Shown piece after piece: positions 24,649 to 60,795 of a DNA stretch of 64,000 nt. The stretch lies in the IMG/VR virus record IMGVR_UViG_3300042922_000270, one strand, 5' to 3'. The position numbers were made by a program, and so were the translations under genes. Numbering within the stretch: position 1 is the first letter of the stretch; each line of letters begins with the position of its first letter. The notes under the pieces were generated by a model. It was not told the DNA's origin. It worked only from the letters and a program-made list of their open reading frames with translations, and did no database searches. The DNA is from a virus. Its lineage: Duplodnaviria; Heunggongvirae; Uroviricota; Caudoviricetes.

Positions 24649-24859
24649 GCGTTAGTTCCTCATGCTTGAAGTGAGCTTTTCTGTCCCCCTCAAAACATAC
24701 AGTATAATCGTATGTGTTATCGGCCTTAAAGAGATAGATTATCTCCCCAACAGGTCCTAAGTAATAAGGCTCTAGTGCTTTAGATAAGACCCCACCAGGA
24801 GTTATAGCGTGGGCAACCACCAGGTCACCCACTTGATATTTAGACTTTGAAGTATTCAT
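24632..24859 (-). CDS. small paralog-family protein
   Basis: YQVGDLVVAHAI ... EELTLVFSI. Confidence 0.6.
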   Translation of the reverse strand: MNTSKSKYQVGDLVVAHAITPGGVLSKALEPYYLGPVGEIIYLFKADNTYDYTVCFEGDRKAHFKHEELTLVFSI

Positions 24860-25559
24860 GATTGCGCCTGATCTTACCTAAGATCTCTTCAGCCTTAGTT
24901 ACGTTAGCCTTCTTACGAAGCACACTGTGTTCGTGACACTCAGCTAAGAACCTAAGTCTTAGGTCTAGAGCCCTGAGCATAGCAGTAGGGGATACTTCTC
25001 CATGCTTGATACTGAGATAGAAGTCTACATCTGAGGATGCAACCTTAGGGTTCATGACACGAGTAGTCAGAAACTTACAACCTAGGTCAACAACACGGAT
25101 AGCGTGCATGACTTCTTTGCCCGTTACTTTCTTACTATAGTCACCCATATGAATGTCTTCTAGGGTCTTACGAACCTTAGAGGCGTGTCCACGAACACAA
25201 TTAAAGTAATCATCTCTGGGAACAATATGAGGGACAACCCTCTGAATCTCATTGTAGATCTTTACGTGACCGATATGCTGTGGCTCAAAGAAGAGCATCT
25301 CAAGACATCCGTGGTTACCCTTAGAGACTAGCCTCAAGAACTTCTCAATCTCATGGAACTCAACATCAGCGGGTTCGTGTAGGCAGACAGTCTCAGCAGG
25401 TTTACTAAACCTAAAGAAGTCTACTGTAGGAGCAACATAGACTCCCTTATAGTCATAATCACTGGTCTCTGTAGCTAGACCAAACCCATGACTACCGCCA
25501 ACTCCCCAGAAGAGGATCTTGCCTGGTAGCTGGTCTTCATTGATTGGTAGTTTATCCAT
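24840..25559 (-). CDS. predicted nucleotidyltransferase (Pol-beta superfamily)
   Basis: GVGGSHGFGLATETSDYDYKGVY matches the GS..G....SD.D NTase signature near the N-terminus. Confidence 0.5.
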   Translation of the reverse strand: MDKLPINEDQLPGKILFWGVGGSHGFGLATETSDYDYKGVYVAPTVDFFRFSKPAETVCLHEPADVEFHEIEKFLRLVSKGNHGCLEMLFFEPQHIGHVKIYNEIQRVVPHIVPRDDYFNCVRGHASKVRKTLEDIHMGDYSKKVTGKEVMHAIRVVDLGCKFLTTRVMNPKVASSDVDFYLSIKHGEVSPTAMLRALDLRLRFLAECHEHSVLRKKANVTKAEEILGKIRRNHEYFKV

Positions 25560-26401: not shown

Positions 26402-26594
26402 ACATAGATGCTAGTAACATACCAGCGATGCAGATTAAGTGCAACCAGAACCGAAGTCCTGGCTGCTCAACAATCTTAGCCTCAATGGTAGGGTAGAAGA
26501 GAAGTGCTGAGACAGCACAGAAGAAAGCCACCCCGTATGACCCAAACAACAAGTTTAGGATACAGAGGACAGCCATAAGAACTGAGGAGAACAT
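26391..26594 (-). CDS. small membrane protein
   Basis: 67 aa, two hydrophobic helices. Confidence 0.4.
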   Translation of the reverse strand: MFSSVLMAVLCILNLLFGSYGVAFFCAVSALLFYPTIEAKIVEQPGLRFWLHLICIAGMLLASMYGR

Positions 26595-30596: not shown

Positions 30597-30618
30597 GGGA
30601 GAGGCCTAAGCCCCTCCC
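30597..30618. terminator. GC-rich hairpin overlapping the PRTase stop codon
   Basis: GGGAGAGGC-CTAA-GCCCCTCCC; near-identical in sequence to the hairpin at 32119..32141. Confidence 0.45.
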
Positions 30619-31442
30619 ACCTCACGCATGTTAGCAAATCCGTTATCGTGCCTGAACCTGATCAGTTCAAACCCTTTACGGAACTTATCTTCCTTGTCAT
30701 ACTCTTGCGAGATGCAAGCATGATAAAGCTTATCAACGAAGCCATCACTGACTCTGTTGAGGACGACCTCCAGCTCACAGAGCTGAATATCGAGGAGGTA
30801 TCTAGTAGCACGCACTACCAATTGATGGCCGGGCTGTTGAATGAGATTCAGGTAATCCTCAATGGATTGCATACCACAGAAGTTCAACTGGTTCTCGATC
30901 TTGGCCATACCGCCCTTATAGGTAGTGAAGTAGCAGAAGACCGTAGGATTCTCGATTCCCTGCTGGTGCATATACTGTCTGATCTTGGCTTCATGTTTAC
31001 CGGTGATCAAGCAATCATCAACAAACAGCAGGACCTTATCTTGGATGAAGTCCTTATTGAGGTAGAACTCATCAGCCATGATAAGGGCTTCCCTTTTCTC
31101 TTCAGGAAGGGTCGAGTAGTCATCGGTGTAGGAAAGTGTTCTCTGCATGAGAGTCCAATCCAACATCGTGTAACCCTCTCGGGTGAGCTTGTCGTTCAAT
31201 TCATTTCTGAAGTGACGAGCAAGAATGGTTGCTGCGATCTCCACAACCTTGAAGGCCGAAGGGATAACAACACATCTCTGAGTGGTTAGTAAGGTCTTGT
31301 GCTCTTCCCAGAACTTCTTAGCCATCTGACGACCAAGCAGACGAGCTGCTCTATCAGAACCAAACTTCAGCTCAGAGTAGTCTCTGGGGTCGAAGTTGGC
31401 GGTCTCAATGGATTCGAAGGTATGGGCGGTGAACTGTTTCAT
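30606..31442 (-). CDS. phosphoribosyltransferase-domain protein (Ter-cluster associated PRTase)
   Basis: VLLFVDDCLITGKHEAKI matches the PRPP-binding motif (hydrophobic-DD-hydrophobic-TG). Confidence 0.65.
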   Translation of the reverse strand: MKQFTAHTFESIETANFDPRDYSELKFGSDRAARLLGRQMAKKFWEEHKTLLTTQRCVVIPSAFKVVEIAATILARHFRNELNDKLTREGYTMLDWTLMQRTLSYTDDYSTLPEEKREALIMADEFYLNKDFIQDKVLLFVDDCLITGKHEAKIRQYMHQQGIENPTVFCYFTTYKGGMAKIENQLNFCGMQSIEDYLNLIQQPGHQLVVRATRYLLDIQLCELEVVLNRVSDGFVDKLYHACISQEYDKEDKFRKGFELIRFRHDNGFANMREVGGA

Positions 31443-32095
31443 ATCTCTGCTAACACTCTCTTAATATCTTTAGGGCCATTAACGTGTCTGTAGTGCATGC
31501 CATACTGGATAGCCGAACCATCACAGATGACATTATCGCCTATATGAAGGATCTCTTGAGGCTCTGCCATGGCCAAACTGTCTGCATCACAGGAGACTTT
31601 CTCCCAGAACACAGGACTAGGCTTAGCAGCACCTATTACATCGGAGAAAACCTTGAAGGCCCACTCTACCCCTAATTGGTTCAGCACAGCTTCTGACAGA
31701 ACCTTGCCTCTAACAAAGTTAGTATTAGAAGCAATGGACAGCAAGATGTCTTTGTTGGCCTCCTGGAAGACCTGCAAGACCTCTCGAAGGCCTGGCTGGA
31801 CAGTCGGAGGATAGGCTCTGAACAAAGCCTCTACGCCTGCACGGATAGGCTCTATAGGCATGCCCTCTCTGCCTGTGTACTTCAGAAACTGATTGTACAC
31901 TCCCACAGAGCTAAGACCGATGCCTTGCTGTTCAGCGTCTTCATCCAGGGCACTCTTAAGAGCTTTGTAGACATTACCCACCTGGACAATGTCTCTACCC
32001 AAAGCTTCACCCAAGAATCTATTTCTAGCTTGGCCGAACTCAGGGTTAGGGCTTATTAGAGTATTCCAGACATCAAACGACACCACTTTAATCAT
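31439..32095 (-). CDS. HAD-superfamily hydrolase
   Basis: VVSFDVWNTLI (HAD motif I, dehalogenase-like FD..GTL variant), C-terminal IGDNVICD (motif IV). Confidence 0.6.
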   Translation of the reverse strand: MIKVVSFDVWNTLISPNPEFGQARNRFLGEALGRDIVQVGNVYKALKSALDEDAEQQGIGLSSVGVYNQFLKYTGREGMPIEPIRAGVEALFRAYPPTVQPGLREVLQVFQEANKDILLSIASNTNFVRGKVLSEAVLNQLGVEWAFKVFSDVIGAAKPSPVFWEKVSCDADSLAMAEPQEILHIGDNVICDGSAIQYGMHYRHVNGPKDIKRVLAEI

Positions 32096-32118
32096 ACTAG
32101 GGCCTTTCTTCTCTGAAA

Positions 32119-32141
32119 GGGGAGAGCCTTAGCCCTCCCCC
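32119..32141. terminator. GC-rich hairpin between terC and the HAD gene
   Basis: GGGGAGAGCC-TTAG-CCCTCCCC followed on the minus strand by TTTCAG. Confidence 0.45.
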
Positions 32142-32151
32142 GAATGGCTGG

Positions 32152-33177
32152 TTAGGTAGCTGCTTCGAGCTTCTTAGCCTTGAGGCTACTCATGAAAGCA
32201 AACGCAATGAACGCTGCTCCCACAAGGCCTGTAAAGACCTCAGGTACTCGAACAAACAAACTACCAAGCATGGCAAATGCCAAGAAACCGATACCCCAAT
32301 GGGCACCATGCTCCAAGTACTGGTACTCAGAAAGCGTACCCAGCTCGACCAGCATGATGGTCATAGACCGTACGAACATCGCACCGATCATCAGACCAAT
32401 CATAATAATCAAAACTAGGTTAGTCACTGCAAACGCACCAATCACTCCATCAAAAGAGAATGATGCATCCAGGACTTCCAGGTACAAGAAGGACATGGCT
32501 CCGCTACGAGTAACTACACCTGCAGCGTCTTCCTGTTCGAAGACCCCACTGAGCACATCGATGAGGCGCTTGAGACCAAGGCCAGCTACCGAAGCAACAG
32601 CAACAGTAAGCTGATGCTGAGCAGGAGCCAACAAAGCTAGGGAAGCACAAACCAACAGTGAGAAGCCCAAGAGAGCATTCTGATACTGGCCAGCCTTAAC
32701 TAGCAACTGTTCGATAGGCTCAAGCCAGTGATGGTCCTTCTCGGGATCAGCAGCCCATGCCATGAACACTTCGAACAAGAACATGCCACCGAATGCCGAA
32801 ATAGCAGGGTGGGCTTCATGTAGCTTGTGAGCATACTCGTTAGGATTGGTCAGAGCCATATGAACAACTTCATACGGATTCATCCAAGCTGTGACACAGA
32901 CAATGAGAATCGGGAACACCAATCTCATGCCGAACACAGCAATGACCATACCCCAGGTCAAGAACCTACGACGCCATACAGCGTCCATCTTCTTAAGCTC
33001 TTTAGCGTTGACGACAGCATTATCAAAAGACAAGCTTACTTCGAGTACCGCCAGAATAGCCGCAGAGACAACTGCTGAGATAGCCCCAGCAAGGGCCCCG
33101 CCCTGCCATCCGTAAACAGCAGCCAGAATCAATCCGATAACTGAAACAATGTAAGACCACTTGAAGAACTTTAGCAA
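32152..33177 (-). CDS. terC: TerC-family integral membrane protein
   Basis: multi-pass membrane protein with LEVSLSFDNAVV (TerC S.DN motif). Confidence 0.65.
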   Translation of the reverse strand: MLKFFKWSYIVSVIGLILAAVYGWQGGALAGAISAVVSAAILAVLEVSLSFDNAVVNAKELKKMDAVWRRRFLTWGMVIAVFGMRLVFPILIVCVTAWMNPYEVVHMALTNPNEYAHKLHEAHPAISAFGGMFLFEVFMAWAADPEKDHHWLEPIEQLLVKAGQYQNALLGFSLLVCASLALLAPAQHQLTVAVASVAGLGLKRLIDVLSGVFEQEDAAGVVTRSGAMSFLYLEVLDASFSFDGVIGAFAVTNLVLIIMIGLMIGAMFVRSMTIMLVELGTLSEYQYLEHGAHWGIGFLAFAMLGSLFVRVPEVFTGLVGAAFIAFAFMSSLKAKKLEAAT

Positions 33178-33358
33178 GCTCGTCTCTCTTTCTTATGTTG
33201 AGAAGAATAGCTGTCTCTGAATTAGGTTAGTTTCTTTATAGCCTGGATAACTTCATTAAGCTCCTGCTTAAGCTCATCGTAAGTCTCTTCTGGAATGATT
33301 AGATCATCCCACATGACATCTATATTTTTAAGCTTACTAAGAATCTCTTTAAAAGTCA

Positions 33359-33964
33359 TTAGCCGATGTTAACACCGTAGTTACGTGCTAGAGTACCAAG
33401 GTCCCAATCCTGAGGGAAGCCCTGACCAACAGCATGGAAGTTCCACTCACCAGCTCCATTCTTACGAAGCTCAGCAAAGATAACCACAGCCAGTCCAGTA
33501 AACTCGTCAGCTAGGTCATAGCGACACAAGGTATTACCTGTGTTCTCATCTACAACCTGCACAAAGGCTCTACCTACATCACCAAAGCTCTGCCTACGGG
33601 CCTTGGCTTCATGAATGGTCACAGGTAGCACAATCTTATCAATCTTAGAATCAACACGTGATAGAGAAATCTTTAGGGTCTCGCACACATCGGTGCCTGA
33701 ACCACCCTTAAGGTCATCACCCATAGTCTCGACAGAGAGGTCAATGGTCTTAGGCTGACCATAATAACAGAAATAACCGTTAGTAGGGACCTTATCATTG
33801 CTCTGCACAAGAATAGCAGATGCATCAAGGTCAAAGTCATCACCAGAGGTAACACGAGCCTTCCAACCTAGCTCGACACGAATCTTATCAAGGTTAGCAA
33901 CAGTCTTCGAAAGGTTAAGCTTCTCGCTCTTCTTGAGCGTCAGTGCAACAGCGTTAGTAGTCAT
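33359..33964 (-). CDS. terD: TerD-domain protein
   Basis: GDDFDLDASAILV ... GDD ... typical TerD calcium-binding motifs; about 200 aa. Confidence 0.75.
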   Translation of the reverse strand: MTTNAVALTLKKSEKLNLSKTVANLDKIRVELGWKARVTSGDDFDLDASAILVQSNDKVPTNGYFCYYGQPKTIDLSVETMGDDLKGGSGTDVCETLKISLSRVDSKIDKIVLPVTIHEAKARRQSFGDVGRAFVQVVDENTGNTLCRYDLADEFTGLAVVIFAELRKNGAGEWNFHAVGQGFPQDWDLGTLARNYGVNIG

Positions 33965-33974
33965 GGTTCTTTCT

Positions 33975-34253
33975 TTAGTTATAGGTAATTATGTTGTTAG
34001 GCTCTATGATTTTATAGCTTGTCTTGTTGATAGAATCCCAAATAGTCATCCCTCTAAGATGACCGTGATGATCATACTCTCTATAGGAAATTCTACCTAT
34101 AATAGTTGTCCGACCCGGAACCATTATATTATATGTTTCCTCTGGAGCTTTTGTAGTCTCAGCTTTAGCTTGCTTTGTATTATCACAACTGGCAGCAAGT
34201 AAGAGGGTGGCCACTAGGACCACCCCCACCAGTTTACTGCGCTTAGCTGCCAT
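33975..34253 (-). CDS. lipoprotein
   Basis: Trimmed to the internal ATG: MAAKRSKLVGVVLVATLLLAASC lipobox; the longer ORF overlaps terD in another frame. Confidence 0.5.
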   Translation of the reverse strand: MAAKRSKLVGVVLVATLLLAASCDNTKQAKAETTKAPEETYNIMVPGRTTIIGRISYREYDHHGHLRGMTIWDSINKTSYKIIEPNNIITYN

Positions 34254-34854
34254 ACCCGTAGGTCTGGGCGATGTCAGCCAGCGTACCAGGCAGGGCAGCA
34301 CCCTGAACCTTGGCACGCCACTCACCGTTGGAGTCCTTGTACAGCTCGCCGAACAGGAGGGCCTGTGCAGTGGGCACGTCGTCGGACAATGGAACTGACT
34401 CAGCCAGCTTGGTGCCGGTGTCCGCATCACGGAACATGATGACAGCATCCGTGACCTGGCCGAACGTCTGGTTGCGGGTAGCAGCCTCGTGAATGGTCAC
34501 AGGGAAGACCACCTTGTCAGCACCCAGAGCTTCGAGCTTCTGGAGGTCGATCGTCAGCACCTCGTCGGGACCATCAGCAGCACCATCCAGGCTGTCGCCC
34601 GAGTGCACCACCGAGCCGTCAGCGTTGCTGAAGCTGCCGTCAGGATTCTTGTTCAGGCCGTAGTAGATGACCTGATCCTTGTCCAAGAGCTTGTTGCCCT
34701 TGAGCACCATGGCCGAGGCATCCAAGTCGAACTTGGTACCGGGGCTCACCGAAGGCTCCCAGGACAGCTCCACAGCAACCTTCTTGAGGCCAGGAGCAGC
34801 TTTGGCAAGGTTGAGGTTCTCGCCCTTACCGAGGGGAAGAGTGGCAATAGTCAA
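34243..34854 (-). CDS. terD: TerD-domain protein (second, GC-rich copy)
   Basis: KFDLDASAMVL ... GDSLDGAADGPDE, TerD motifs; local GC content is clearly higher than in the other TerD gene. Confidence 0.75.
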   Translation of the reverse strand: MTIATLPLGKGENLNLAKAAPGLKKVAVELSWEPSVSPGTKFDLDASAMVLKGNKLLDKDQVIYYGLNKNPDGSFSNADGSVVHSGDSLDGAADGPDEVLTIDLQKLEALGADKVVFPVTIHEAATRNQTFGQVTDAVIMFRDADTGTKLAESVPLSDDVPTAQALLFGELYKDSNGEWRAKVQGAALPGTLADIAQTYGYGS

Positions 34855-38364: not shown

Positions 38365-38591
38365 TTAGTAAAGAAGAGTTCTATCTCTTCTCTCCCAAAG
38401 TAATCGGCCTCATAGTCGTTATAGTCCTTATCAAACTTTAGAAAGTACTCTAGGCCTTGACGACAGCCAAGGTCTAGATGCTCAACCTCATAGATTTTGC
38501 CTATGTGGGTGCCCTTCCAGTCGTCTCTTCCAGACCTGGGGCCATCAGATAGAACTATAACCAGATCACCAGGTTTAATGTTATTCGTCAT
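38361..38591 (-). CDS. small paralog-family protein
   Basis: IKPGDLVIVLSD ... EEIELFFTK. Confidence 0.6.
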   Translation of the reverse strand: MTNNIKPGDLVIVLSDGPRSGRDDWKGTHIGKIYEVEHLDLGCRQGLEYFLKFDKDYNDYEADYFGREEIELFFTK

Positions 38592-39804
38592 ACTTGAGGT
38601 TAAACTTAGGGCTGATAACCTTGAAGCTTACGAAGCCAGCGTTTAGATCACCCAGATCAAAATCGAACTTAGGCTCGACTAGTCTGTAGACATCACCTTC
38701 ACGCTCAGTCTTCTTGTTATGAACCGACTTACCTTCGGCCATAGCCACAAGCTCGTCCACTGTGTGATTGAGAACAAAGTCTCTATCGATGATAGGAACC
38801 ATGTTAAGGCCTAGAGCTCTAACAAGCTTCTCAGTTTCTTCAAGACTATAATAGGTAAGGCTATCCGGATCGAATGCCTGAAAGACGAATAGATCCTTCT
38901 TCTTAAAGTCATACTTGTTACCCTGAATACCGGGACCACACATCTCACCCTGAATAACCAGATTGGTTCCAAAAGGAGTGCAGAGTGACCTCATCTTAGT
39001 TTCCAGGTCCAGCTCAAGGGCTAGCTCCCAGAAGGTAGGATCAACTCCAGCATCAATGTCCACAAGAGCTAGCAGCTCGTTGAAGAACTTCTTACGAACA
39101 ATACCAGTCCACTTAGGATTGTACTTGTCCATAAAGATAGTCCACTTGTACTCAGCCATCTTAATCTTCTTACGAAGGTTAAACTTAGTACAGACCTTGG
39201 ACCACCAATCATCACCAGGACGCGCTAGCTCTAGGTTACGAGAAGCAATACCGAACTTACCATCTTTGAGGTAGGCAGTGAAGCTGGAACCGTCCATCTT
39301 CTCAGCCCTATAGAATCTATGACCTCTGTACTTCTCCAGGAGCTTCTCCAAGATCTGTACACGAGTCTCGTCAGTCTTATAGATGAACGAGGGGAAGGGC
39401 ATACCAGACTTCTTCCGGAAGACACCAGCCAACTTAGGCTGACCCTTCTGAGGCTTCTGGTAGGGCTCCCACTTCTTGATACCGATGACATCAGTCACGT
39501 CAGTACCCTCAGGGCAGCCTTGCATGTTTTTAGGTAGAATAGTTACAGGGAAGCAGATACCCTGAGAGATCTGACCACGGAGCTTAATAGTCTGGACTCT
39601 GAACTTACGCTGACGCATAAACTCAAACTCAGGCTTCTCCGGTAGGAGAGAATCGATCTCAACGTAAACACACTTATCACCAGGTTTAAACTCGTCAAGT
39701 TTTACAACTACGTTCCAACCAAGTACCCTAGCTCTCTGAATAGCATCAGCGCCCTCAATGGGCTGAATATCTTTGATAGTCTGAATAGAGGCTAGTTTTC
39801 TCAT
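38581..39804 (-). CDS. RNA ligase (ATP-dependent, Rnl-family)
   Basis: AEKMDGSSFTAY contains the nucleotidyltransferase motif I (K.DG) in an Rnl-like context; 407 aa. Confidence 0.65.
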   Translation of the reverse strand: MRKLASIQTIKDIQPIEGADAIQRARVLGWNVVVKLDEFKPGDKCVYVEIDSLLPEKPEFEFMRQRKFRVQTIKLRGQISQGICFPVTILPKNMQGCPEGTDVTDVIGIKKWEPYQKPQKGQPKLAGVFRKKSGMPFPSFIYKTDETRVQILEKLLEKYRGHRFYRAEKMDGSSFTAYLKDGKFGIASRNLELARPGDDWWSKVCTKFNLRKKIKMAEYKWTIFMDKYNPKWTGIVRKKFFNELLALVDIDAGVDPTFWELALELDLETKMRSLCTPFGTNLVIQGEMCGPGIQGNKYDFKKKDLFVFQAFDPDSLTYYSLEETEKLVRALGLNMVPIIDRDFVLNHTVDELVAMAEGKSVHNKKTEREGDVYRLVEPKFDFDLGDLNAGFVSFKVISPKFNLKYDE

Positions 39805-41491: not shown

Positions 41492-42250
41492 TTAAGCGAC
41501 GAGGCCTTTGGCACGAGCCTGCTTGAGCCAGCCGGGGAACTCGGTGAGGATCTTCCCATAGAGCTTAGGCCCATCGAGGGTCGGCTCCATGTGGAAGAAG
41601 TCAGCATTGTCCAGGAAGCGACCAGTCAGGTCGTCCAGCTTCTGGAGGAACTTGAACTGCTCGTTGCCGATGCCCACGAACTGGAAGAAGATGGCATGAG
41701 TCGAGGCGTCACGAAGAGCCTTCTCAGTCTCGGGGTGATCGAAGTTCTCACCATCGGTCAGGAAGAACACGAAGGTAGGAACCTCCGGAGTGCGCTCCTC
41801 GCTAGACACGTGGGTGACAGTCTCGGTCTTACCGAAGAAGCCCATGATGCCCTTAGCCTTCTCAGTGGTCGTGGTGATCTGCTGCTGCTTGTTGCCCATG
41901 TCAGCCACGATGGCGTTGATGGTGTAAGCAAACATGGTACCACCACTGGCACGGATGTTCTTGTTGATCCAGCCATCCGAGTTGGAGACGGACATGGTAC
42001 CAACCTTACCATGGTTGATGGTGTAGACGTCGATCTGCTGATCCGGATCCCAATGGGCCGACAAGGCGAGCAGACGGTCAGCAACGTTCTGGACCTGGCC
42101 AGACGAATACTCACCACCCATGCTACCGGAGTCGTCCAGGACAACCACAACGTTCGCTCTCAGAGTGTCGAGGTTCTTCTTCTCCAAGGTCAGCTTGACT
42201 TCCTTCTGGAGGGTCAGCTGGTCTTCCTTCTTGAGAGAAAGCATAGTCAT
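41492..42250 (-). CDS. vWA-domain protein (TerY-like)
   Basis: VVVVLDDSGSMGG MIDAS motif; about 250 aa like TerY/TerF vWA proteins; GC-rich. Confidence 0.65.
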   Translation of the reverse strand: MTMLSLKKEDQLTLQKEVKLTLEKKNLDTLRANVVVVLDDSGSMGGEYSSGQVQNVADRLLALSAHWDPDQQIDVYTINHGKVGTMSVSNSDGWINKNIRASGGTMFAYTINAIVADMGNKQQQITTTTEKAKGIMGFFGKTETVTHVSSEERTPEVPTFVFFLTDGENFDHPETEKALRDASTHAIFFQFVGIGNEQFKFLQKLDDLTGRFLDNADFFHMEPTLDGPKLYGKILTEFPGWLKQARAKGLVA

Positions 42251-42258
42251 GTAGATTA

Positions 42259-43527
42259 CTACTCCTTTTGACTTCCGAAGAAGTTATTACCAGACATAAG
42301 CTGGGTAAGCATTAGCATCTCTGAAAGGTCAGACTTACCTTCACCCTTGCCCATGAACATCATCATAGCCATAGGGTTCTTGGAGAAGTCCATAGTAGTA
42401 TTGCCGCCACCCATGAACTGAGACAACATCATCATCTCAAGTGGATCGGACTTTCCTTCGCCCATCATGCCAAACATCATGAGCTGGTTAAGGTTAGCGT
42501 TGTTATCGCCACCAAAATTCATCATAGAGACGACCTTAGTAAATAGCTTCATACCAAACATGTTGGAGCTAGGTACTAGAGTCTCTTCTTTACTGTTACG
42601 AGGATTGATACCTACAATGTTACCATTCTTCTTGATATCAGTTACAAATAGATACAGATCAGAACCACCATTACCACCACTGTTGTTTAGGATTAGATCA
42701 CCCTTCTTAACGTCAGTAGCCTGGACAGGCATATTGTATAGAAAGTCACCACCCATAGCCATCCCAGCGGGTACACGAGTAAGCTCTGAACCATTAAACG
42801 CAGCATACTCTTGATTACCTGCTAGAGCTACAGCTACGCCTGCAGCAGTGAGGCTAACTTCATTAGAAGTGTTCTTACCAAAGGTGACACCCAGAAGCTT
42901 CTTAAAGTTCATATTGTTCTTGCTTTCTTCCTTGGGCGCTTCAGCCCCAATAGTAGTCTTGTCTGTACCATTAAGAGTTGTATTAGCCGCTAGCTTAGTA
43001 CCGGTAGATTCAACTTTCCACTTACCATCTTCACCCTTAACAATACGTTTGGGGTCAGTTGGGTTTGCTCTGAGACCAAGCCAACCGACATGGTCATCTT
43101 TCTCAACAATAGTTAGTTCTAGGTCGTCAGGGTCGTCGGCACATTGTCCCCGAATATTATAACAATAAGCTGTGCCATCGCCGTCTTCAGCAGTGACTGC
43201 CCAAGGCCAGTCTTTTAGCTCATCACTGATACCAGTTACTGTAACAAAGGTGCCGTCATCATCACCAAGAACATAGGTATCACCCACACTCCAGTCAAAC
43301 TTAGGTTTAGGAATCTTGGCTGTAGGCCCGACTACACGCATAGGATCTAACATTGAATCGTAACGACCCTGTCTTCCATCCTCCATGTGCCACTCTTCGT
43401 AGGTCCCATGAATATCTTTCATTAGATATGGATATTGATCATCGTCGTCATCGTATTCTACGTATCTCAGAACGGTACCATCGACGGTCTCGTAGTACCG
43501 CCCTAGCATCCAGTTAATCTTACTCAT
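42259..43527 (-). CDS. hypothetical protein with Met/Gly-rich C-terminal repeats
   Basis: 422 aa; C-terminus has repeated GEGKSD(L/P)xEMxML segments. Confidence 0.45.
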   Translation of the reverse strand: MSKINWMLGRYYETVDGTVLRYVEYDDDDDQYPYLMKDIHGTYEEWHMEDGRQGRYDSMLDPMRVVGPTAKIPKPKFDWSVGDTYVLGDDDGTFVTVTGISDELKDWPWAVTAEDGDGTAYCYNIRGQCADDPDDLELTIVEKDDHVGWLGLRANPTDPKRIVKGEDGKWKVESTGTKLAANTTLNGTDKTTIGAEAPKEESKNNMNFKKLLGVTFGKNTSNEVSLTAAGVAVALAGNQEYAAFNGSELTRVPAGMAMGGDFLYNMPVQATDVKKGDLILNNSGGNGGSDLYLFVTDIKKNGNIVGINPRNSKEETLVPSSNMFGMKLFTKVVSMMNFGGDNNANLNQLMMFGMMGEGKSDPLEMMMLSQFMGGGNTTMDFSKNPMAMMMFMGKGEGKSDLSEMLMLTQLMSGNNFFGSQKE

Positions 43528-44575: not shown

Positions 44576-44579
44576 AAAG

Positions 44580-44652
44580 TCGGCCCTACGGGATTCGAAC
44601 CCGTGCTAAGAGTTTTAGAGACTCCTGTGCTATCCGCTAACACCAAAGGCCG
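44580..44652 (-). tRNA. tRNA with anticodon CUA (predicted amber-suppressor tRNA)
   Basis: Hand-folded cloverleaf: acceptor CGGCCUU/AGGGCCG, D-stem GUGU/GCAC, anticodon stem GGAGU/ACUCU, loop C-U-CUA-A-A, T-arm ACGGG-UUCGAAU-CCCGU, discriminator A; no encoded CCA. Confidence 0.6.
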
Positions 44653-46786: not shown

Positions 46787-48301
46787 CTACTGGGGCTTCT
46801 TAGTTAGAACAAACTCTTCAGCCTGCTCTACTGTTGAGATTAGACCATCTACAACTAGCTGCTTCATTTCCTTCATGACAGCACCTAGCTCAACACCAGG
46901 CTTCATGCCTAGCATCTTAGCTACTTGGTTACCATCAATAGGAGTCTTCACAGCCTCACCAATCAACTTGGACGTATCCAACTGACTGATCATCACTTCT
47001 AGTTTAGCAAAGCCTTCTACGTCTCTGTAGGCCTCACTATGTGCAAGCCGATCAGAAACCATAAGTTGGATATGCTCTTTCCAGAGGTGGCCCATCTTGT
47101 TGACGAACCTTCTTACATTGCGTATGTTCCACTCGCCATGGGCATAGTTAACATGTTCGCCAACCATCATGGTGATGTCTGTGATGTCTTCACCAGAGAA
47201 CTTGAGTCTCCTCAAGATCTTCTCGGTCATGTCTGCTCCCCAGTAGTCATGCTTCAAGAAGGACTTACCCTCACGAAGAGCCCATGAGCCACAAGTCGGA
47301 CACTCTATCTTGTCTACCTTATCGTACACATCACCAGGAAGCTTAGACTTGTAGTCACACCTGTCTTCTATGCACTTGTATCTGATTTGGAACGAAGTCG
47401 GTTTAGCGACGTCGTGAAGGAGGCAAGCGAGAACGACTCTATAGCTAGCACCGAGATCAACAGCATTTTCCACTGCCAGGAGGGTATGCTCCCAAAGAGG
47501 CAGATGATGATGGTAATTATCTTGATCATAGCCAAGCTGCGATACAAGTTCAGGTATAATGTGAGTGATAACTCCATCTTCCATCATCTCCCTAAAGGCA
47601 AGCGCCGCAGTACGAGTTCCAGCAATCTGCACGAGTTCGTCATGGATACGTTCCCATGAGATCTCTTTGAGATAGGGAGCCCATTGTCTGATGGCTGGAC
47701 GGATGTTATCATCAAAGACAAAGCCAAGTCTGTGTTTGAAACGATACGCCCGAAGGATCCTGAGGGGATCGTCCGAGAACGAGGTTGATGCATCGATAGG
47801 GGTTCTGAGTAGTCCCACCGAGCTTGGTCTGTCCAAACAGGAGTACCCTTCCAGACTAGTACTGTCACTGATATTCACCTCGGCGTAGTAATTGTAAGTG
47901 GGGTCCCAGCACAGGTAAGCTGCAATGGCATTACAAGTGAAGTCTCTACGCACTAGGTCATCACTGAGATTCTTGCTGAAGTTGACCTTGGGTCTACGAT
48001 TGCCACGTTCGTAGCTTTCGTTGGCCCTGAAGGTAGTGATCTCTAGTTGTTCACCTTTGTAGATACAATGTACCGTACCGTAGTTACCACCGTTCTTTTC
48101 AACAATGGAAGCACCTAGCTTCTTCATGATTTTGGTGATAACCTCAGGCTCTGCGTCGGTAGCAAAGTCGAAGTCTTTCGGTTCACGATTAAGAATCATA
48201 TCTCTGACACAGCCACCTACCAACCACAGTTCATGGTTGCCGAAGGCCTTAACGAGTGGAAACAGGGTCTCCAACTTATCGTGGAATAGCTGGGTGCGCA
48301 T
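46787..48301 (-). CDS. cca: tRNA nucleotidyltransferase (CCA-adding enzyme) with HD domain
   Basis: LWLVGGCVRDMILNREPKDFDFATDA (GG.VRD ... D.D head domain) and a LLHDVAKP HD motif. Confidence 0.8.
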   Translation of the reverse strand: MRTQLFHDKLETLFPLVKAFGNHELWLVGGCVRDMILNREPKDFDFATDAEPEVITKIMKKLGASIVEKNGGNYGTVHCIYKGEQLEITTFRANESYERGNRRPKVNFSKNLSDDLVRRDFTCNAIAAYLCWDPTYNYYAEVNISDSTSLEGYSCLDRPSSVGLLRTPIDASTSFSDDPLRILRAYRFKHRLGFVFDDNIRPAIRQWAPYLKEISWERIHDELVQIAGTRTAALAFREMMEDGVITHIIPELVSQLGYDQDNYHHHLPLWEHTLLAVENAVDLGASYRVVLACLLHDVAKPTSFQIRYKCIEDRCDYKSKLPGDVYDKVDKIECPTCGSWALREGKSFLKHDYWGADMTEKILRRLKFSGEDITDITMMVGEHVNYAHGEWNIRNVRRFVNKMGHLWKEHIQLMVSDRLAHSEAYRDVEGFAKLEVMISQLDTSKLIGEAVKTPIDGNQVAKMLGMKPGVELGAVMKEMKQLVVDGLISTVEQAEEFVLTKKPQ

Positions 48302-48581: not shown

Positions 48582-48583
48582 AG

Positions 48584-48656
48584 CGGCCCCACCAGGACTC
48601 GAACCTGGGACAAAGGTTTAGGAAACCTCCGTTATATCCATCTTAACTATGAGGCC
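48584..48656 (-). tRNA. tRNA-Arg (CCU), tentative anticodon
   Basis: Acceptor GGCCUCA/UGGGGCC, D-stem GUUA/UAAC, anticodon stem GAGGU/ACCUU with loop UUCCUAA, T-loop UUCGAGU. Confidence 0.6.
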
Positions 48657-48665
48657 ATTGTGGGG

Positions 48666-49004
48666 CTAGTGCCCCGTGTTGTGGTGAGGGTCAGGACAGC
48701 GACAACGCACACCCTTATCCTCAGTCTTAGGCTTCTTTGACTCTTCGTAAGCAGCATTGGCACTAGCCAAAGTCTTAGGGTCAATCTTAGCCAAAGCCTT
48801 CTGCTTCTCGTGATCGATGGCAATGTAGAACATGATCTCATCTCTCACAAGAGAATCAATCATTAGAGGCTTGAGGGCCTCCATAATCACAGAGCCATTG
48901 ATACGACTCTCAATCTCAGGACGCTTGGTTTCAGCAAAGGCTTTGGCCTCGGCAACAACCTTAGGGTCTAGAGTCTCAAGTAGCTGGTCCAATGTTTTGA
49001 GCAT
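48666..49004 (-). CDS. hypothetical protein
   Basis: Trimmed to the internal ATG (MLKTLDQLLE...) to minimise overlap with the NADAR gene. Confidence 0.4.
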   Translation of the reverse strand: MLKTLDQLLETLDPKVVAEAKAFAETKRPEIESRINGSVIMEALKPLMIDSLVRDEIMFYIAIDHEKQKALAKIDPKTLASANAAYEESKKPKTEDKGVRCRCPDPHHNTGH

Positions 49005-49470
49005 TGCGTAGTTCCTCTCGAACTTGCATGAGGGCCTTGCCAAGAAGGTTACGCCCAGCTTTGTCACACTTAGGCAAGCGACCACAGTAGCAGTCACCCC
49101 AGATATTATCGTGATGGTAGTTACCCTCAATAAGGATAGCATCACCGGTACCCAAGAGAATCTCTCTTAGGTCAGCATGTTGACTGAACTTAGCTCTTAC
49201 AAGCTCAACCATAAGGTCGTACTTGATATCTTCCCAATCAGGCCTGAACGACTTAATGATCCCTCGGGGACCACCCATCCTCTTAGCCTTACCAGGTGTC
49301 TCAGCCAACATGATTTGAGCAAACTCTTTAGGGTCCGAAGATTTAAGAGCTTGGTACGGGTGCTCAAGGGTCTTACACTTCATGCCCCTGTAAGTAAACT
49401 CTCTTTCAAAGAAGTTACTAAAGCATTCGTACTTACCCGTGAACCTGTCTATTACTGCTACTGTAGCCAT
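48976..49470 (-). CDS. NADAR (YbiA-like, DUF1768) domain protein
   Basis: YECFSNFFEREFTYRGMKCKTLEHPYQALK matches the NADAR signature (F.SNF ... E..YQA.K); start trimmed to MATVAVIDRF. Confidence 0.7.
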   Translation of the reverse strand: MATVAVIDRFTGKYECFSNFFEREFTYRGMKCKTLEHPYQALKSSDPKEFAQIMLAETPGKAKRMGGPRGIIKSFRPDWEDIKYDLMVELVRAKFSQHADLREILLGTGDAILIEGNYHHDNIWGDCYCGRLPKCDKAGRNLLGKALMQVREELRNAQNIGPAT

Positions 49471-49493
49471 TATTACCTCTATTATTATATTAC

Positions 49494-49569
49494 TGGCCCT
49501 GGAGGGATTCGAACCCTCAACCTCTCCCGGCATAAACCAGTGAGTGCTCTACCATTGAGCTACAGAACC
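49494..49569 (-). tRNA. tRNA, anticodon arm not resolvable by hand (possibly non-canonical loop)
   Basis: Good acceptor (GGUUCUG/CAGGGCC), D-arm GCUC-AAUGGUA-GAGC and T-arm GAGGG-UUCGAAU-CCCUC; the interior CUCACUGGUUUAUGCCGGGAGAGG does not give a standard 5-bp stem with 7-nt loop. Confidence 0.55.
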
Positions 49570-49864
49570 AAGTGAGGCTGAATACACAGCCTGGCGCACA
49601 TCCCTAGGTCTATCAGGAAACCACCTGTAAAGCGTTGGTCCAGGATTTAATTACCTGTTAGCTATTACGTCTGCTTCTCTTCTAGCCTTATGTTTGATGC
49701 TTTACCTCTGATCTTTGATCTCTTATCTTTCCTCGGCAACAAATCCCCCGAAAAGGTGGAGGAATACGTTAGATTGATAAATCCAAAATCAATGTAATGC
49801 TTCATAAGGTTGAAACGGACCTTCCCGAGTTCGAGATGTTCGTGCACCCAGCCTCAAAAGTTGT

Positions 49865-50542
49865 TTAGTTGAACTTTAGCAGTTCATCCGGAATCTCGAT
49901 CTGAGTCGAGGTGTTAGCCTCAGACAGAACGAAGTCCAGAGTGGTCTCCAGCTCAACCTGCTCGTCAGTATAGTTCTTCACTACCTCACGAAGGTTGAGG
50001 GGATCGAGCAGAGCAGGCTGATACATGCTCTTGAGGTTCTTAGCCACAAGCTCGAGCTGTTCCTGCTTCACCTGTTGACCATTGCTGGCCAAGGCATTCT
50101 GCTGGTTCTCGATCTGCTGGTTCACCGCAAACTCAGCATTCTCGTATTCACGAGTAGCGAGACTGAGGCGCTGCTCCAGCTTGGTAAGTAGGGTTCTGCG
50201 GTTACCACGAACCTTGCAGTCCTTCAGACCAAGCGACTGACGGAGATACACAGCCTCAGCCAGAGTCATGACGGTACCACGAACGGTAACGTTAGTCTCC
50301 AAGTTAGCCTTCTGAATGGCGAACTTGAGCTGTGCACGACGAGCAATGAGGTCATTGACCTGTTGGAACTCAGCTTGGATGTCCTTAGCCTGCTCGTCAG
50401 CAGTCTTGTACTTCTTGGTGACAGGGGACTTTTGATCTCCGATGGTCAGTCCGATGAGCTGGAGGTTGGCAATGGCCTTCTCGATACGGTCATCGAGGCT
50501 CTTGGCTACGGTCATTGCGCGGGTGATTGATACTTTTGACAT
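49865..50542 (-). CDS. coiled-coil hypothetical protein
   Basis: 225 aa; Gln/Glu/Leu-rich heptad-like sequence; GC-rich. Confidence 0.45.
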   Translation of the reverse strand: MSKVSITRAMTVAKSLDDRIEKAIANLQLIGLTIGDQKSPVTKKYKTADEQAKDIQAEFQQVNDLIARRAQLKFAIQKANLETNVTVRGTVMTLAEAVYLRQSLGLKDCKVRGNRRTLLTKLEQRLSLATREYENAEFAVNQQIENQQNALASNGQQVKQEQLELVAKNLKSMYQPALLDPLNLREVVKNYTDEQVELETTLDFVLSEANTSTQIEIPDELLKFN

Positions 50543-54166: not shown

Positions 54167-54198
54167 CGTTATAACCTTTCGAATGTGTAATAACTAAG

Positions 54199-54276
54199 TG
54201 GAGATGACGGGAATTGAACCCGTGTGCGTACAAGTTCCACTGTGGGCTTTAATGTACGACGAAACCAACCATCCCC
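54199..54276 (-). ncRNA. atypical tRNA-like element (78 nt)
   Basis: Acceptor GGGGAUG/CAUCUCC and T-arm ACGGG-UUCAAUU-CCCGU are fine, but the interior forms a long GUACA...UGUAC stem enclosing 20 nt instead of canonical D and anticodon arms. Confidence 0.45.
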
Positions 54277-54283
54277 AAATTTA

Positions 54284-54502
54284 TCATGAGTGACAGTTTT
54301 TACACTTCACTCGACCATTATATGTGTCTGTAACATGCTTCCAGGTAACACTATCTGTAATCTTTCCACAGAAGGTCATGTTAGAGATGCCACTCTTGGC
54401 TATGTGAACTATTTTAGTTCCAGGCTCTAGAATGGCACTCTGACAGACTCTGTATTTCTTTGGCTTCTTCTTACTCATAGACCAAGAAGTTCTCATCAGC
54501 AA
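54284..54502 (-). CDS. Zn-ribbon small protein
   Basis: 72 aa; C..C ... C..C. Confidence 0.4.
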   Translation of the reverse strand: MLMRTSWSMSKKKPKKYRVCQSAILEPGTKIVHIAKSGISNMTFCGKITDSVTWKHVTDTYNGRVKCKNCHS

Positions 54503-54842
54503 GTATCTGCTGACAATCTCTTTTATGTTGCAGATACCTGTCTAGGACACCTTGAATGTTCTTAGCACCAACAGGGTTAGCGCTGTGAACGTTGAAGCTG
54601 AAGTTATCAGGGAACGTATGGGTACCGTTAAGATCCTGCTCGATTAGCCAGTTAGCAAAGTAGTGCCCAGTCTTGATCTCACCCAGGTCATGGTCAAAAC
54701 CAATAAAGTCAGGCATACCGTTAGTAAGCACAAACATCTCTGCCTGATCTGAGTTGCGAGCAACAAGCATCATACTACCCAGTTCTTGACCATAGGTCTT
54801 GATAGGGTCTCGTTCATCATCTAGAAACAGATTCCAACTCAT
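54471..54842 (-). CDS. hypothetical protein
   Basis: 123 aa ORF. Confidence 0.4.
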
Positions 54843-55393
54843 TGGTTATCCTTCAGCATGTTAATAAACATAGCACCCTGCTCGATAGCATCGTCTAGGG
54901 CCTTATGTGTATGGGGCAACGGATCAAACCACTTCTTAGGGAAGTTACGTTTAGTACTATCACGATAGGGTTTCTTGAGCATGGCACTAGCATAAGACTT
55001 GATGTCCAGAGCTGAGTGAGAGAACTGACTCTTACCTGTAAACTTTATTAGATACCAGTAGACAAACATGAAGTCAAAGCCTGCTGGGTAAGCCACGAAG
55101 ACCGGTTTACCTGGTAAAAGGTCCAACCACTCACTGAAATCTTTCATGGCCTTCTCGGGGCTCACAGGGGCCTTAGTTGCATACTCATACGCTTCAGGCT
55201 GTGTCAGCCACCAGGCCATAGTATCAGGATGTCCTACAGCGCCTTCCAGAGGACTAAGATTAACTTCAAATGTTGATACAAGTTTCTTATCTTTTGTGTA
55301 CGCAGCAGCACCAAGTGAAAGCATAGAATGCGGTCCAGGTATTGGACCATCTGTCTCAACGTCACAACTTACGTATATTTCTTGTTTAGCCAC
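54839..55393 (-). CDS. DEDDh 3'-5' exonuclease (DnaQ/RNase T/Orn-like)
   Basis: [14 protein letters not shown] (Exo I DxE), [11 protein letters not shown] (Exo II), HKALDDA (Exo III H....D). Confidence 0.7.
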
Positions 55394-55947: not shown

Positions 55948-55962
55948 AATACTCTTTCATAG

Positions 55963-56033
55963 TCGCTGCACTAGGACTCGAACCTAGATTACCCTCTTGG
56001 GGAGGGCCGCCTATTCCGTTAGCGGATACAGCA
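55963..56033 (-). tRNA. tRNA, possibly Trp(CCA) with unusual C33; anticodon uncertain
   Basis: Acceptor UGCUGUA/UGCAGCG, D-stem CGCU/GGCG, T-arm CUAGG-UUCGAGU-CCUAG; the anticodon arm folds either as GCCCU-CCCCAAG-AGGGU or with a 5-nt loop. Confidence 0.5.
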
Positions 56034-56039
56034 AGTTTA

Positions 56040-56909
56040 TTATTTGTTACAAGTGTGTCCGTACATCACAGCCAGAACGATCTCTCCCCTAGCCTTAGCT
56101 GCTGCCTGCTCACAGGCATTACACTTAAGCTCTTGAACTAGAGCCTTGTCGTAAGTCAGAGAAAGGTCTGAGCCAACTGCAGCACGAGTAAAGGCTACCA
56201 ACTTGGCATCACCTAAAGCCTCTGCAACCGTCTTACTGTCATCTAGAACAAACGTCTGGTTAAGCAGGCAAACTCTAGAGTAGAACTTAGCCATACGACC
56301 AAGAACCATCTTCTCTTTAATCTCCTGAGGCTTAGACAGATGAGCTACTTCTTCCATTAGGAAGTTATACTCCTTCTCTTCTACCTCAGAAGGTACGTCT
56401 GCTCTGGAAACATATTGAGGGTTAGCCGCAGCAATGTGCATAGCAATCTTGTTAGCTAGGTCCACGTCGCCACCCTTAAGGTTAACTAGTGCACCAATCT
56501 TCTTGTTGCTATGGACATAACTACCAAAGACATCTCCGGGCATGCCGGACATATCAACCAGTGAAGACCCTACATTCTCTTTGAAAGCATTTCTACGAGA
56601 CCACATATCTTCAGGAGGAATGTTATAGTTAACACTATCCTGAGCATATTTGATAAAGTCGGCATTACGAGCTACAAAGTCGGTCTCACACTCAGTCTTC
56701 TCGATACGGTCGCCTGTGTCACTAATAACAACCACACCCTCAGAGGTAGTGCGGTTCTGGCGCTTCTCAGCATCTGCAAGTCCGGCTAGTCTTAGAATGT
56801 CTGTGGCTTTGTCCATATCACCATTAGCAGCTACGAGGGCCTTCTTACAGTCCATCATGCCCGCACTGGTGAGCTGTCTAAGCAGTTTAACGTCTTGAGC
56901 GGTGAACAT
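56040..56909 (-). CDS. tsf: translation elongation factor Ts (EF-Ts) homolog with Cys-rich C-terminal tail
   Basis: LRQLTSAGMMDCKKALVAANGDMDKATDILR matches the EF-Ts N-terminal signature (TGAGMMDCKKAL); further collinear matches: TECETDFVARNADF, MHIAAANPQYVSRADVPSEVEEKEY, KPQEIKEKMVLGRMAKF; C-terminus CNACEQ ... HTCNK. Confidence 0.85.
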   Translation of the reverse strand: MFTAQDVKLLRQLTSAGMMDCKKALVAANGDMDKATDILRLAGLADAEKRQNRTTSEGVVVISDTGDRIEKTECETDFVARNADFIKYAQDSVNYNIPPEDMWSRRNAFKENVGSSLVDMSGMPGDVFGSYVHSNKKIGALVNLKGGDVDLANKIAMHIAAANPQYVSRADVPSEVEEKEYNFLMEEVAHLSKPQEIKEKMVLGRMAKFYSRVCLLNQTFVLDDSKTVAEALGDAKLVAFTRAAVGSDLSLTYDKALVQELKCNACEQAAAKARGEIVLAVMYGHTCNK

Positions 56910-57948: not shown

Positions 57949-58036
57949 GAAGCAAGACCGCCTGCCAGGATTCGAACCTGGGTCTCCGTTCTATAGGACC
58001 TGTACACAGTCCCCGGCAGCTCTTGGCCTCTAAGCT
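57949..58036 (-). tRNA. class II tRNA with long variable arm, probable Tyr (GUA)
   Basis: 88 nt; acceptor CCGUCUG/CAGGCGG, D-loop AGAGGCCAAGAGC resembling tRNA-Tyr, hairpin GGACU-GUGUACA-GGUCC giving anticodon GUA, T-arm CCAGG-UUCGAAU-CCUGG; five unpaired nt before the anticodon stem are irregular. Confidence 0.5.
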
Positions 58037-58222
58037 ACAGACGGTTGGATTTAGGTTAGGCACTTACCGGTGATAGTCATACCAAAGGCAGCAATGATGA
58101 TGCCTATAGTAAACAACACTATACCTACAGGCTTGCCCATAGACATAAGGTTAACACCAGCTATCATGAAGGTTGAGCCCAACATGAATACACTGAAGCC
58201 CGTAAGTGCAAAAAGAGCCGAC

Positions 58223-60557: not shown

Positions 60558-60713
60558 AGCGCGAATCTCCGGATCGAACGGAGTCTCCTATCTATTCCTA
60601 CATCCCTAGCCACCCTTGCAATGGTGATTCGGAGTATCTCAGGACCTAGTTAACATCAGCCCAGCTGTGGAGACCAATAGGTGTTTTGCCACTTAAACTA
60701 AACTCGCATATAG

Positions 60714-60795
60714 CGGCTGACATGGGAATCGAACCCACTGAAGCTTTCACTCCCACTCTTTAGCAAAGAGTTTCCTGACCGGTCGGGTATCAGCC
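60714..60795 (-). tRNA. tRNA-Ser (GCU)
   Basis: 82 nt class II; acceptor GGCUGAU/GUCAGCC, anticodon stem ACUCU/AGAGU with loop UUGCUAA, long variable arm, T-arm GUGGG-UUCGAUU-CCCAU. Confidence 0.65.

Follow-up and report, generated by a model that had tools for sequence, protein, structure and literature searches.

Guanine-linked ADP-ribose is removed from DNA by every class of NADAR tested (PMC11125620) and from RNA likewise (PMC11833690), and cytidine-linked ADP-ribose is removed also by NADARs of the Glu type (PMC12945103). In phages, T4 AdfN and two unrelated NADARs, those of Bas32 and Bas60, restore phage growth on hosts that carry DarTG1 (PMC11257639). E. coli YbiA, an N-glycosidase of riboflavin intermediates, also hydrolyses guanine-ADP-ribose in vitro (PMC11125620). 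The present analysis concerns a member of the NADAR superfamily (Pfam PF08719, DUF1768, COG3236) encoded by a gene of 164 amino acids (aa) at 48976..49470 on the minus strand of a 64,000-nucleotide (nt) stretch of viral DNA, IMG/VR record IMGVR_UViG_3300042922_000270 (Caudoviricetes), which at its full length is referred to as the window. The gene is real and intact. By analogy with the enzymes named above, its product would, with a probability of roughly 0.55, be an active NADAR that counters host ADP-ribosyltransferases by hydrolysing ADP-ribose off the bases of phage DNA and/or RNA.

Family membership and gene model

The sequence-only reading had named the product a NADAR domain protein, and a profile search bears this out. 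The match to PF08719 scored 111.7 bits against a cut-off of 35.1 (E = 5.4e-32) and paired residues 13–155 of the protein with positions 9–163 of the 163 in the profile, which is the whole domain. NCBIfam TIGR02464 was matched at 106.7 bits against a curated cut-off of 73.7, and phrog_1017 was matched with E = 5.5e-39. By sequence, the only PDB entries identified were E. coli YbiA (PDB: 2B3W, E = 8.4e-19) and the NADAR of Phytophthora nicotianae (PDB: 8BAU, E = 1.3e-8). An AlphaFold2 model built on 32 homologues had a mean predicted local distance difference test score (pLDDT) of 96 and a predicted template modelling score (pTM) of 0.89. When compared to the PDB with Foldseek, the same two structures were recovered (2B3W with a TM-score of 0.79 and 8BAU with 0.76), and there was no other match below E = 1. 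The protein is predicted by this model to have the YbiA-like fold, an α-helical core with two small β-sheets.

The resemblance to YbiA bears on function, as the protein may be considered in terms of a housekeeping N-glycosidase that destroys reactive intermediates of the riboflavin pathway. TIGR02464 is a model of the equivalog_domain type and was passed by a wide interval (106.7 vs 73.7 bits), YbiA is the best match in the PDB, and the label given by JGI to an identical protein is 'ribA/ribD-fused uncharacterized protein'. However, TIGR02464 is a domain model that recognizes the core shared by NADARs, and the window protein is single-domain and unfused. RibA, RibD and other riboflavin genes were not found in the window (Pfam for the 65 open reading frames (ORFs) of at least 100 aa; PHROGs and PADLOC for unknown ORFs; all negative gene searches of the window given below come from these scans). 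The benefit of such an activity to a lytic phage is not obvious, and the YbiA-like branch of the superfamily is almost devoid of phage NADARs (Johannesman et al., PMC11257639). With no riboflavin context, the role was rejected as very improbable, and the annotation 'ribA/ribD-fused protein / swarming motility protein' is misleading for genes of this sort.

The gene is read on the minus strand from an in-frame ATG at 49470 to a TGA stop at 48976. In its longest form the ORF has its start at 49533 and would run across a transfer RNA (tRNA) gene, tRNA-Ile (anticodon TAT; 49493..49570, minus strand); its 21 extra residues (beginning MPGEVEGSNPSRAS...) derive from this overlap. Since the longer ORF runs through the tRNA, the trimmed start at 49470 is correct. 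The 21-codon trim had already been made in the sequence-only reading to avoid the tRNA, and three further observations agree with it: a Shine-Dalgarno-like AGAGGT read from the sequence (49475..49480, minus strand) with a 4-nt spacer to the ATG; a 32-sequence alignment in which homologues start at the position equivalent to 49470; and an independent gene call from a different assembly of this phage (Logan SRR35179700, locus L001), where the same 164-aa product is encoded at 6939–7433. The second assembly also upholds the overlap of about 29 nt that had been noted with the next ORF, as a 112-aa downstream gene is called there at 7405–7743 and overlaps the NADAR gene by 29 nt. The overlapped last ~9 codons of the NADAR gene encode the tail NAQNIGPAT, which is outside the conserved domain. 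The least confident block of the AlphaFold2 model is residues 161–164 (pLDDT = 72).

The exact protein was found on just two contigs, one of 208,594 bp from JGI and that from Logan, and the next-best relatives are at most 55% identical. More distant relatives are abundant. Among the candidates, 1,484 proteins were homologous at E <= 1e-10; 756 phage records of GenBank had a homologue, with identities that all fell short of 60%, and 474 IMG/VR stretches were confirmed to have one. The phage itself is a novel, uncultured jumbo phage. It was judged novel because a megablast of the 46–52 kb region against 50,697 phage records returned no match and because the PolA proteins of the closest isolates, which are cyanophages, are only ~26% identical to its own. 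This novelty precluded a transfer of annotation.

Active site and a His-Cys-Cys-Cys motif

Active site residues were mapped by a sequence alignment to 8BAU, with the roles of residues taken from the study of the P. nicotianae NADAR (PnNADAR) by Schuller et al. 2023 (PMC11543638); the chain numbering of 8BAU runs two ahead of that used in the paper. The segment YECFSNFFEREFTYRGMKCKTLEHPYQALK (residues 14–43; 49342..49431, minus strand), which had been singled out earlier as the hallmark NADAR motif, does hold two catalytic residues: E36 (codon 49363–49365, minus strand), which aligns with PnNADAR E43, and K43 (codon 49342–49344, minus strand), which aligns with PnNADAR K50. The class-defining glutamate, E115 (codon 49126..49128, minus strand), aligns with PnNADAR E125. 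In the same alignment, K63 corresponds to PnNADAR K75, G66 to G78, R69 to R79, W79 to W89, K83 to R93, D121 to D130 and W124 to W133. All of the conserved catalytic positions, the absence of which had been named as grounds against the assignment, are therefore present in the alignment, and E36, K43, K63, G66, W79, E115, D121 and W124 are invariant among the 32 homologues. The tyrosine that stacks on adenine in PnNADAR (Y84) has no clear equivalent in the window protein. PnNADAR K75 is the counterpart of K115 in the E. coli C7 protein, where it is required for antitoxin function (PMC11543638).

The position occupied by E115 distinguishes the classes of NADAR, being an aspartate in the DarT1-associated (DarG1-type) proteins and a histidine in the T4-type phage proteins (PMC11543638). 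Glu-type NADARs, defined by a glutamate at the position of PnNADAR E125, comprise the 'NADAR' and YbiA families of Schuller 2023 and Mikolcevic 2026. Alignments place the start of the domain at residue ~7, with no N-terminal extension. Since E115 is a glutamate and the extension is absent, the window protein is classed by alignment as a core-only, Glu-type NADAR.

The loop that follows D121 and W124, two of the residues predicted to bind the diphosphate, presents a further motif, H120-x6-C127-x-C129-x5-C135 (49066..49113, minus strand), that is near-invariant in the 32-homologue alignment. Across homologues it takes the form His-x6-Cys-x-Cys-x(2-5)-Cys. The histidine and the cysteine triad occurred together in 161 of 188 non-redundant homologues, a set that is not phylogenetically independent. 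In another 16 of the 188 the histidine is replaced by Gly, Asn or Thr and the cysteine triad is missing, and in a single protein a cysteine replaces the histidine and the triad is kept. Six have the histidine without the canonical triad; no cluster is seen in at least two of these (L037, L052), and at least four have Cys/His clusters of variant form. Because the histidine and the cysteine triad covary, the motif is a probable zinc knuckle of the His-Cys3 kind, with metal binding put forward from this pattern of conservation. It is absent from YbiA, the T5-like NADAR and T4 AdfN in an alignment comparison. Neither zinc nor cysteine is mentioned in the NADAR literature compared, the founding paper of de Souza and Aravind (2012) being outside that comparison. 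The dominant viral form of the clade would thus carry a zinc site with no counterpart in these three proteins, and this is relevant to the choice of a phage NADAR for structural study.

The motif pattern of the clade was found at only 59 loci in bacterial and archaeal genomes taken at one genome per species, many of them contigs of metagenome-assembled genomes (MAGs). In loci L087–L093, from Desulfobaccales/Syntrophobacterales MAGs, a clade NADAR is present at ~45% identity on contigs of which several are large, up to 832 kb, and an ORF of ~2 kb adjoins the NADAR in most of them. Among cells, the clade may have a home in these deltaproteobacteria.

Substrate and genomic setting

After the Phytophthora NADAR complex, a nucleobase-linked ADP-ribose would have its diphosphate bound by K43, R69, W79, K83, D121 and W124 and its distal ribose flanked by E36 and E115. 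The C1''-N glycosidic bond would then be hydrolysed to yield ADP-ribose and an intact base. The target would be expected at N2 of guanine, and cytosine may be another since the protein is a Glu-type NADAR. Marks made by DarT1-like or pierisin/ScARP-like enzymes of the host on phage DNA and/or RNA would be erased, whichever toxin wrote them. The specific role proposed earlier, reversal of guanine ADP-ribosylation of the DarT type, is plausible by homology, since a precedent among phage NADARs has been published (PMC11257639).

Several observations weigh against an enzyme that acts on ADP-ribosylated phage nucleic acid. The basic N-terminal extension that is thought to bind DNA in DarG1 is missing from the window protein. 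YbiA and the T4 NADAR both remove guanine-ADP-ribose in vitro and neither protects cells from DarT1 (PMC11125620); as a result, activity in vitro does not settle which target matters physiologically. The window protein also passes the curated cut-off of TIGR02464, a model of the riboflavin-intermediate N-glycosidase. Neither DarT nor any other ADP-ribosyltransferase turned up in the window, which is one part of a genome of at least 208 kb and in which very divergent enzymes of this kind could escape the scans, and ADP-ribosyltransferases are also absent from the 25 most frequent families that neighbor homologues, both viral and cellular. The families that are present, given below, point to roles in RNA repair, in NAD or nucleotide metabolism, or on small molecules at least as well.

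The sequence-only reading had also joined the NADAR to a Macro protein of the window as a two-enzyme kit against ADP-ribosylation. This pairing finds little support. The Macro gene (3876..4391, minus strand; Pfam Macro, 102.6 bits) is 45 kb from the NADAR gene with ~85 ORFs in between; the two are neither adjacent, nor fused, nor part of one operon. Moreover, the protein is closer to MacroD-type than to DarG macrodomains: its best match in the PDB was TTHA0132 (PDB: 2DX6, E = 1.8e-24, 89.6 bits), compared with 51.4 and 39.4 bits for DarG macrodomains (among them 5M3I, E = 1e-12). The DarG model of PADLOC was still matched, at 63 bits, in its macro part only. Since MacroD-type enzymes remove phosphate-linked and not base-linked ADP-ribose (PMC11833690), the Macro and NADAR proteins would provide complementary chemistry without forming a linked module. 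That the two co-occur in the genomes of large DNA viruses is a statistical trend already on record (PMC9503650).

The window is coded almost wholly on the minus strand, and the placement of the NADAR gene beside a tRNA/CCA region in the earlier reading proved correct. The tRNA-Ile (ARAGORN; Rfam tRNA, 54.9 bits) ends 22 nt upstream of the NADAR ATG and is itself preceded by a terminator-like hairpin (49744–49763, minus strand). Downstream, the 112-aa ORF that overlaps the 3' end of the NADAR gene (48666..49004, minus strand) has a GAGAGGA 9 nt upstream of its ATG and is followed, 9 nt past its stop, by tRNA-Arg (anticodon CCT; 48583..48656, minus strand; ARAGORN; Rfam tRNA, 60.4 bits). The ATG of an 89-aa ORF comes 1 nt after tRNA-Arg, and next is the gene of a CCA-adding enzyme (46787..48301, minus strand; Pfam PolyA_pol head, RNA-binding and HD domains), 0.7 kb downstream of the NADAR gene. 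A terminator-like hairpin was not found on the minus strand between tRNA-Ile and the CCA gene. The tight packing of genes suggests that the NADAR gene is co-transcribed with tRNA-Ile, the 112-aa ORF, tRNA-Arg and the CCA gene and that the tRNAs are cut out of this transcript. A promoter scan was uninformative, with fewer sigma-70-like sites than in shuffled sequences.

Two of the adjoining genes merit a description of their own. The 112-aa ORF is an ORFan with a C-terminus rich in Cys and His (CRCPDPHHNTGH). It was rejected as a conserved functional partner of the NADAR, as it has no Pfam, NCBIfam, PHROG or PADLOC match; tblastn found no match to it in the phage collection and none in 80 viral NADAR loci. 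On the upstream side, a 225-aa protein is encoded at 49865–50542 (minus strand) and matches phrog_1491, labelled 'tail fiber protein', with E = 8.9e-48. This ORF has early, tRNA and RNA-repair genes around it, and the tail-fiber label is probably an error. In a T5-like phage, too, a gene labelled 'tail fiber protein' (L082:7630-8268) lies close to NADAR and cREC.

With the NADAR gene inside a tRNA array and near a CCA-adding enzyme, the physiological substrate may be sought in the RNAs of translation. The enzyme would in that case remove ADP-ribose from G or C in tRNA, ribosomal RNA or messenger RNA (mRNA), as a module of an island that protects or replaces tRNAs. The window encodes 14 tRNA genes in addition to genes for nucleotide metabolism and replication, and it carries two RNA ligases, RlaP, cREC and EF-Ts. 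Among hydrolases, only the NADAR family has been found to undo the ADP-ribosylation of guanosine in RNA, and tRNA is modified by ScARP (PMC11833690). In the 80 closest IMG/VR loci, a tRNA occurs within about 6 kb of the NADAR in 25, within 1 kb in 14 and within 200 nt in 8. However, large phages group their tRNA arrays and accessory early genes in any case, and the adjacency figures are raw counts. The tRNA-adjacent loci examined (L022, L023, L029, L042, L050, L057, L061) belong to a sub-clade without the cysteine triad, so that adjacency is not a trait of the closest kin of the window protein. In addition, the protein has no RNA-binding domain, and an RNA ADP-ribosyltransferase directed at guanine or cytosine is not yet known as a phage defence, CmdT having adenine as its target. 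A substrate confined to the RNA of translation is therefore unlikely. A broader version, in which the Cys-motif clade is a structurally uncharacterized and mainly viral sub-family whose member in this phage repairs base-ADP-ribosylated translation RNA, as a module of an island of tRNA, CCA-adding enzyme and RNA ligase genes and with the knuckle, next to the active site, as an aid to nucleic acid recognition, is more speculative again and decidedly doubtful.

The set of RNA-repair genes in the window is unusually large. A fusion of 747 aa (26594–28837, minus strand) joins a kinase (AAA_33), a calcineurin-like phosphoesterase (Metallophos) and an Rnl1 RNA ligase in a Pnkp-like domain order. Other genes of this kind encode RlaP (24840–25559), a second RNA ligase with a PHA02142 OB domain (38581–39804), cREC (54471–54842) and a Rv2179c-like 3'-5' exoribonuclease (54839–55393).

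The genes that surround homologues were surveyed two to either side, at 67 non-redundant viral loci (139 ORFs) and at 55 cellular loci (150 ORFs); the counts are based on crude ORF calls and non-independent loci and are restricted to the 25 most frequent families. The viral neighbors by Pfam were Metallophos (8), NAD_synthase (6), Band_7 (4), DUF7788/DUF2828 (3), YqeY (3), RlaP (2), NAPRTase (2) and RNA_ligase (2), with PTH2 also among them. The cellular neighbors were HAD (7), HD (7), H+-PPase (4), YAcAr SLOG (4), rhodanese (3) and the nucleoside hydrolase IU_nuc_hydro (2). These counts agree with earlier descriptions of phage NADARs beside genes of NAD salvage and RNA repair (PMC9503650, PMC7824862).

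From such neighbors, a role on low-molecular-weight derivatives of ADP-ribose or NAD rather than on nucleic acids may be considered, with the NADAR acting alongside the Macro, cREC and phosphoesterase proteins of the phage. Candidate substrates are variants of cyclic ADP-ribose, immune signals or toxins that contain N-glycosidic ADP-ribose, and the by-products of NAD-dependent RNA repair. A role of this kind is a standing proposal for phage NADARs (PMC9503650, PMC7824862). It is favored by the presence in the window of cREC, the MacroD-type Macro, the kinase-Metallophos-Rnl1 fusion, RlaP and the second RNA ligase; by Metallophos, NAD_synthase, NAPRTase, RlaP and RNA_ligase among the viral neighbors and HAD, HD, YAcAr SLOG and IU_nuc_hydro among the cellular ones; and by one homologue (P0002) in which a NADAR and a SLOG match (YAcAr, PF10686) share a polypeptide. 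Nonetheless, no soluble derivative of ADP-ribose is shown as a substrate in the NADAR literature compared, and KptA/Tpt1, sirtuin, TIR and NAD-salvage genes were not found in the window. The limits on the neighbor counts given above apply here, and all of the phage NADARs that have been studied experimentally act on DNA-linked ADP-ribose in vivo (PMC11257639). A small-molecule substrate is thus considered fairly unlikely, and removal of base-linked ADP-ribose from phage DNA and/or RNA is the reading that is preferred.

With a tRNA array that includes a suppressor tRNA, a mini-tmRNA-like RNA, a large set of RNA-repair genes, a Ter cluster and an EF-Ts homologue, the window is more unusual than the NADAR gene itself. 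A tRNA of the amber-suppressor type (anticodon CTA) is encoded at 44579–44652 (minus strand), and TAG stops occur in 20 of the 112 called ORFs. At three IMG/VR loci, a tRNA(CTA) lies 3–560 nt downstream of the NADAR (L023:6987-7059, L042:3631-3702, L050:6509-6583). ARAGORN also reported an 89-nt 'tRNA-???' at 57956–58044 (minus strand) with a two-base anticodon (ga), for which there is no Rfam tRNA match at the gathering threshold, and a tRNA-Trp (55962–56033) and a tRNA-Ser (60713–60795) that are not listed by Rfam. The EF-Ts homologue (56040–56909, minus strand; Pfam EF_TS, E = 5.3e-45) is located within the tRNA-rich region.

An RNA of 81 nt (54196–54276, minus strand) matches the Rfam model of transfer-messenger RNA (tmRNA, RF00023) from end to end at 56 bits (gathering 47), with no call by ARAGORN. 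The tRNA-like domain is complete, with an acceptor stem GGGGAUG/CAUCUCC that includes a G3:U70 pair and with a T-arm, and 14 nt stand in for the 306-nt mRNA/pseudoknot part. It appears to be a phage mini-tmRNA reduced to the tRNA-like domain. Finally, a Ter cluster (30606–34854 and ~41500–42260, both minus strand) encodes a ComF-like phosphoribosyltransferase, a HAD hydrolase, a DUF475/TerC membrane protein, two TerD proteins and a vWA-TerF-like protein. A few jumbo phages are known to have clusters of this tellurite-resistance type (PMC7824862).

Comparison with described NADARs

The Phytophthora NADAR, solved in complex with ADP-ribose, is also of the Glu type, and the residues that contact its ligand map one-to-one onto the window protein with the exception of the adenine-stacking tyrosine. 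At 26% identity it differs by its N-terminal and internal extensions, and zinc and cysteine are not mentioned in its paper. YbiA is the best match among solved structures, with an identity of 34% by Foldseek and 38% in a separate alignment. It shares the Glu-type active site and has no N-terminal extension; however, it has no cysteine triad, and the loop after W124 is seven residues longer in the window protein. YbiA is encoded in a LexA-controlled operon of the host (PMC11125620), and both its genomic setting and its probable substrate are unlike those of the window protein.

The DarG1 antitoxins (BC4488-type, E. coli C7, G. lovleyi) belong to the same superfamily and the same chemistry would be expected of them. 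The lysine that is essential to antitoxin function in DarG1 is present in the window protein as K63. Assignment to the DarG1 type was rejected given a glutamate rather than an aspartate at the class position, no basic N-terminal β-β-α extension and no adjacent darT1. The anti-phage NADAR of DS-32 (NF053876) was rejected as well, with a score of 56.2 bits against a curated cut-off of 240.

T4 AdfN (gp30.3, PF08010) was the first phage NADAR described to act against DarTG1. Like the window protein it is small and core-only, with E36 and K43 at the same numbers, and it is presumably an early gene, as is the window NADAR. The AdfN type has a histidine at the position of E115 and is adapted to hydroxymethylated DNA (PMC11257639), whereas the window protein keeps the glutamate. 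Membership of the AdfN family was rejected on this ground and because no BLASTP alignment to gp30.3 was obtained at E <= 100 and PF08010 scored 20.1 bits against a cut-off of 36. As a route to a comparison with the Bas60 type, the first 50 kb of phage rV5 was searched and no NADAR was found there.

A closer likeness is seen in the T5-like phages (Tequintavirus). The NADAR of phage vB_EcoD-Elw (WOZ54417.1) is 38% identical to the window protein (E = 8e-31) and is likewise stand-alone and core-only with a glutamate at the position of E115; it lacks the His-Cys-Cys-Cys motif that the window protein has. The NADAR of Bas32 restored phage growth on DarTG1 hosts and neutralised DarT1 (PMC11257639); the link to Bas32 is through the shared phage group only, as the identity figure refers to the vB_EcoD-Elw protein. 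The early region of the T5-like phage and the window both carry NADAR, DHFR, ThyA, the phrog_1491 protein, cREC and an exonuclease, which hints at a distant link between the window and T5-like early regions. The window protein is a divergent member of a family that is very common in large phages and for which a role against DarTG1 is already published; its putative zinc knuckle and its position inside a tRNA array are modest additions to what is known of this family.

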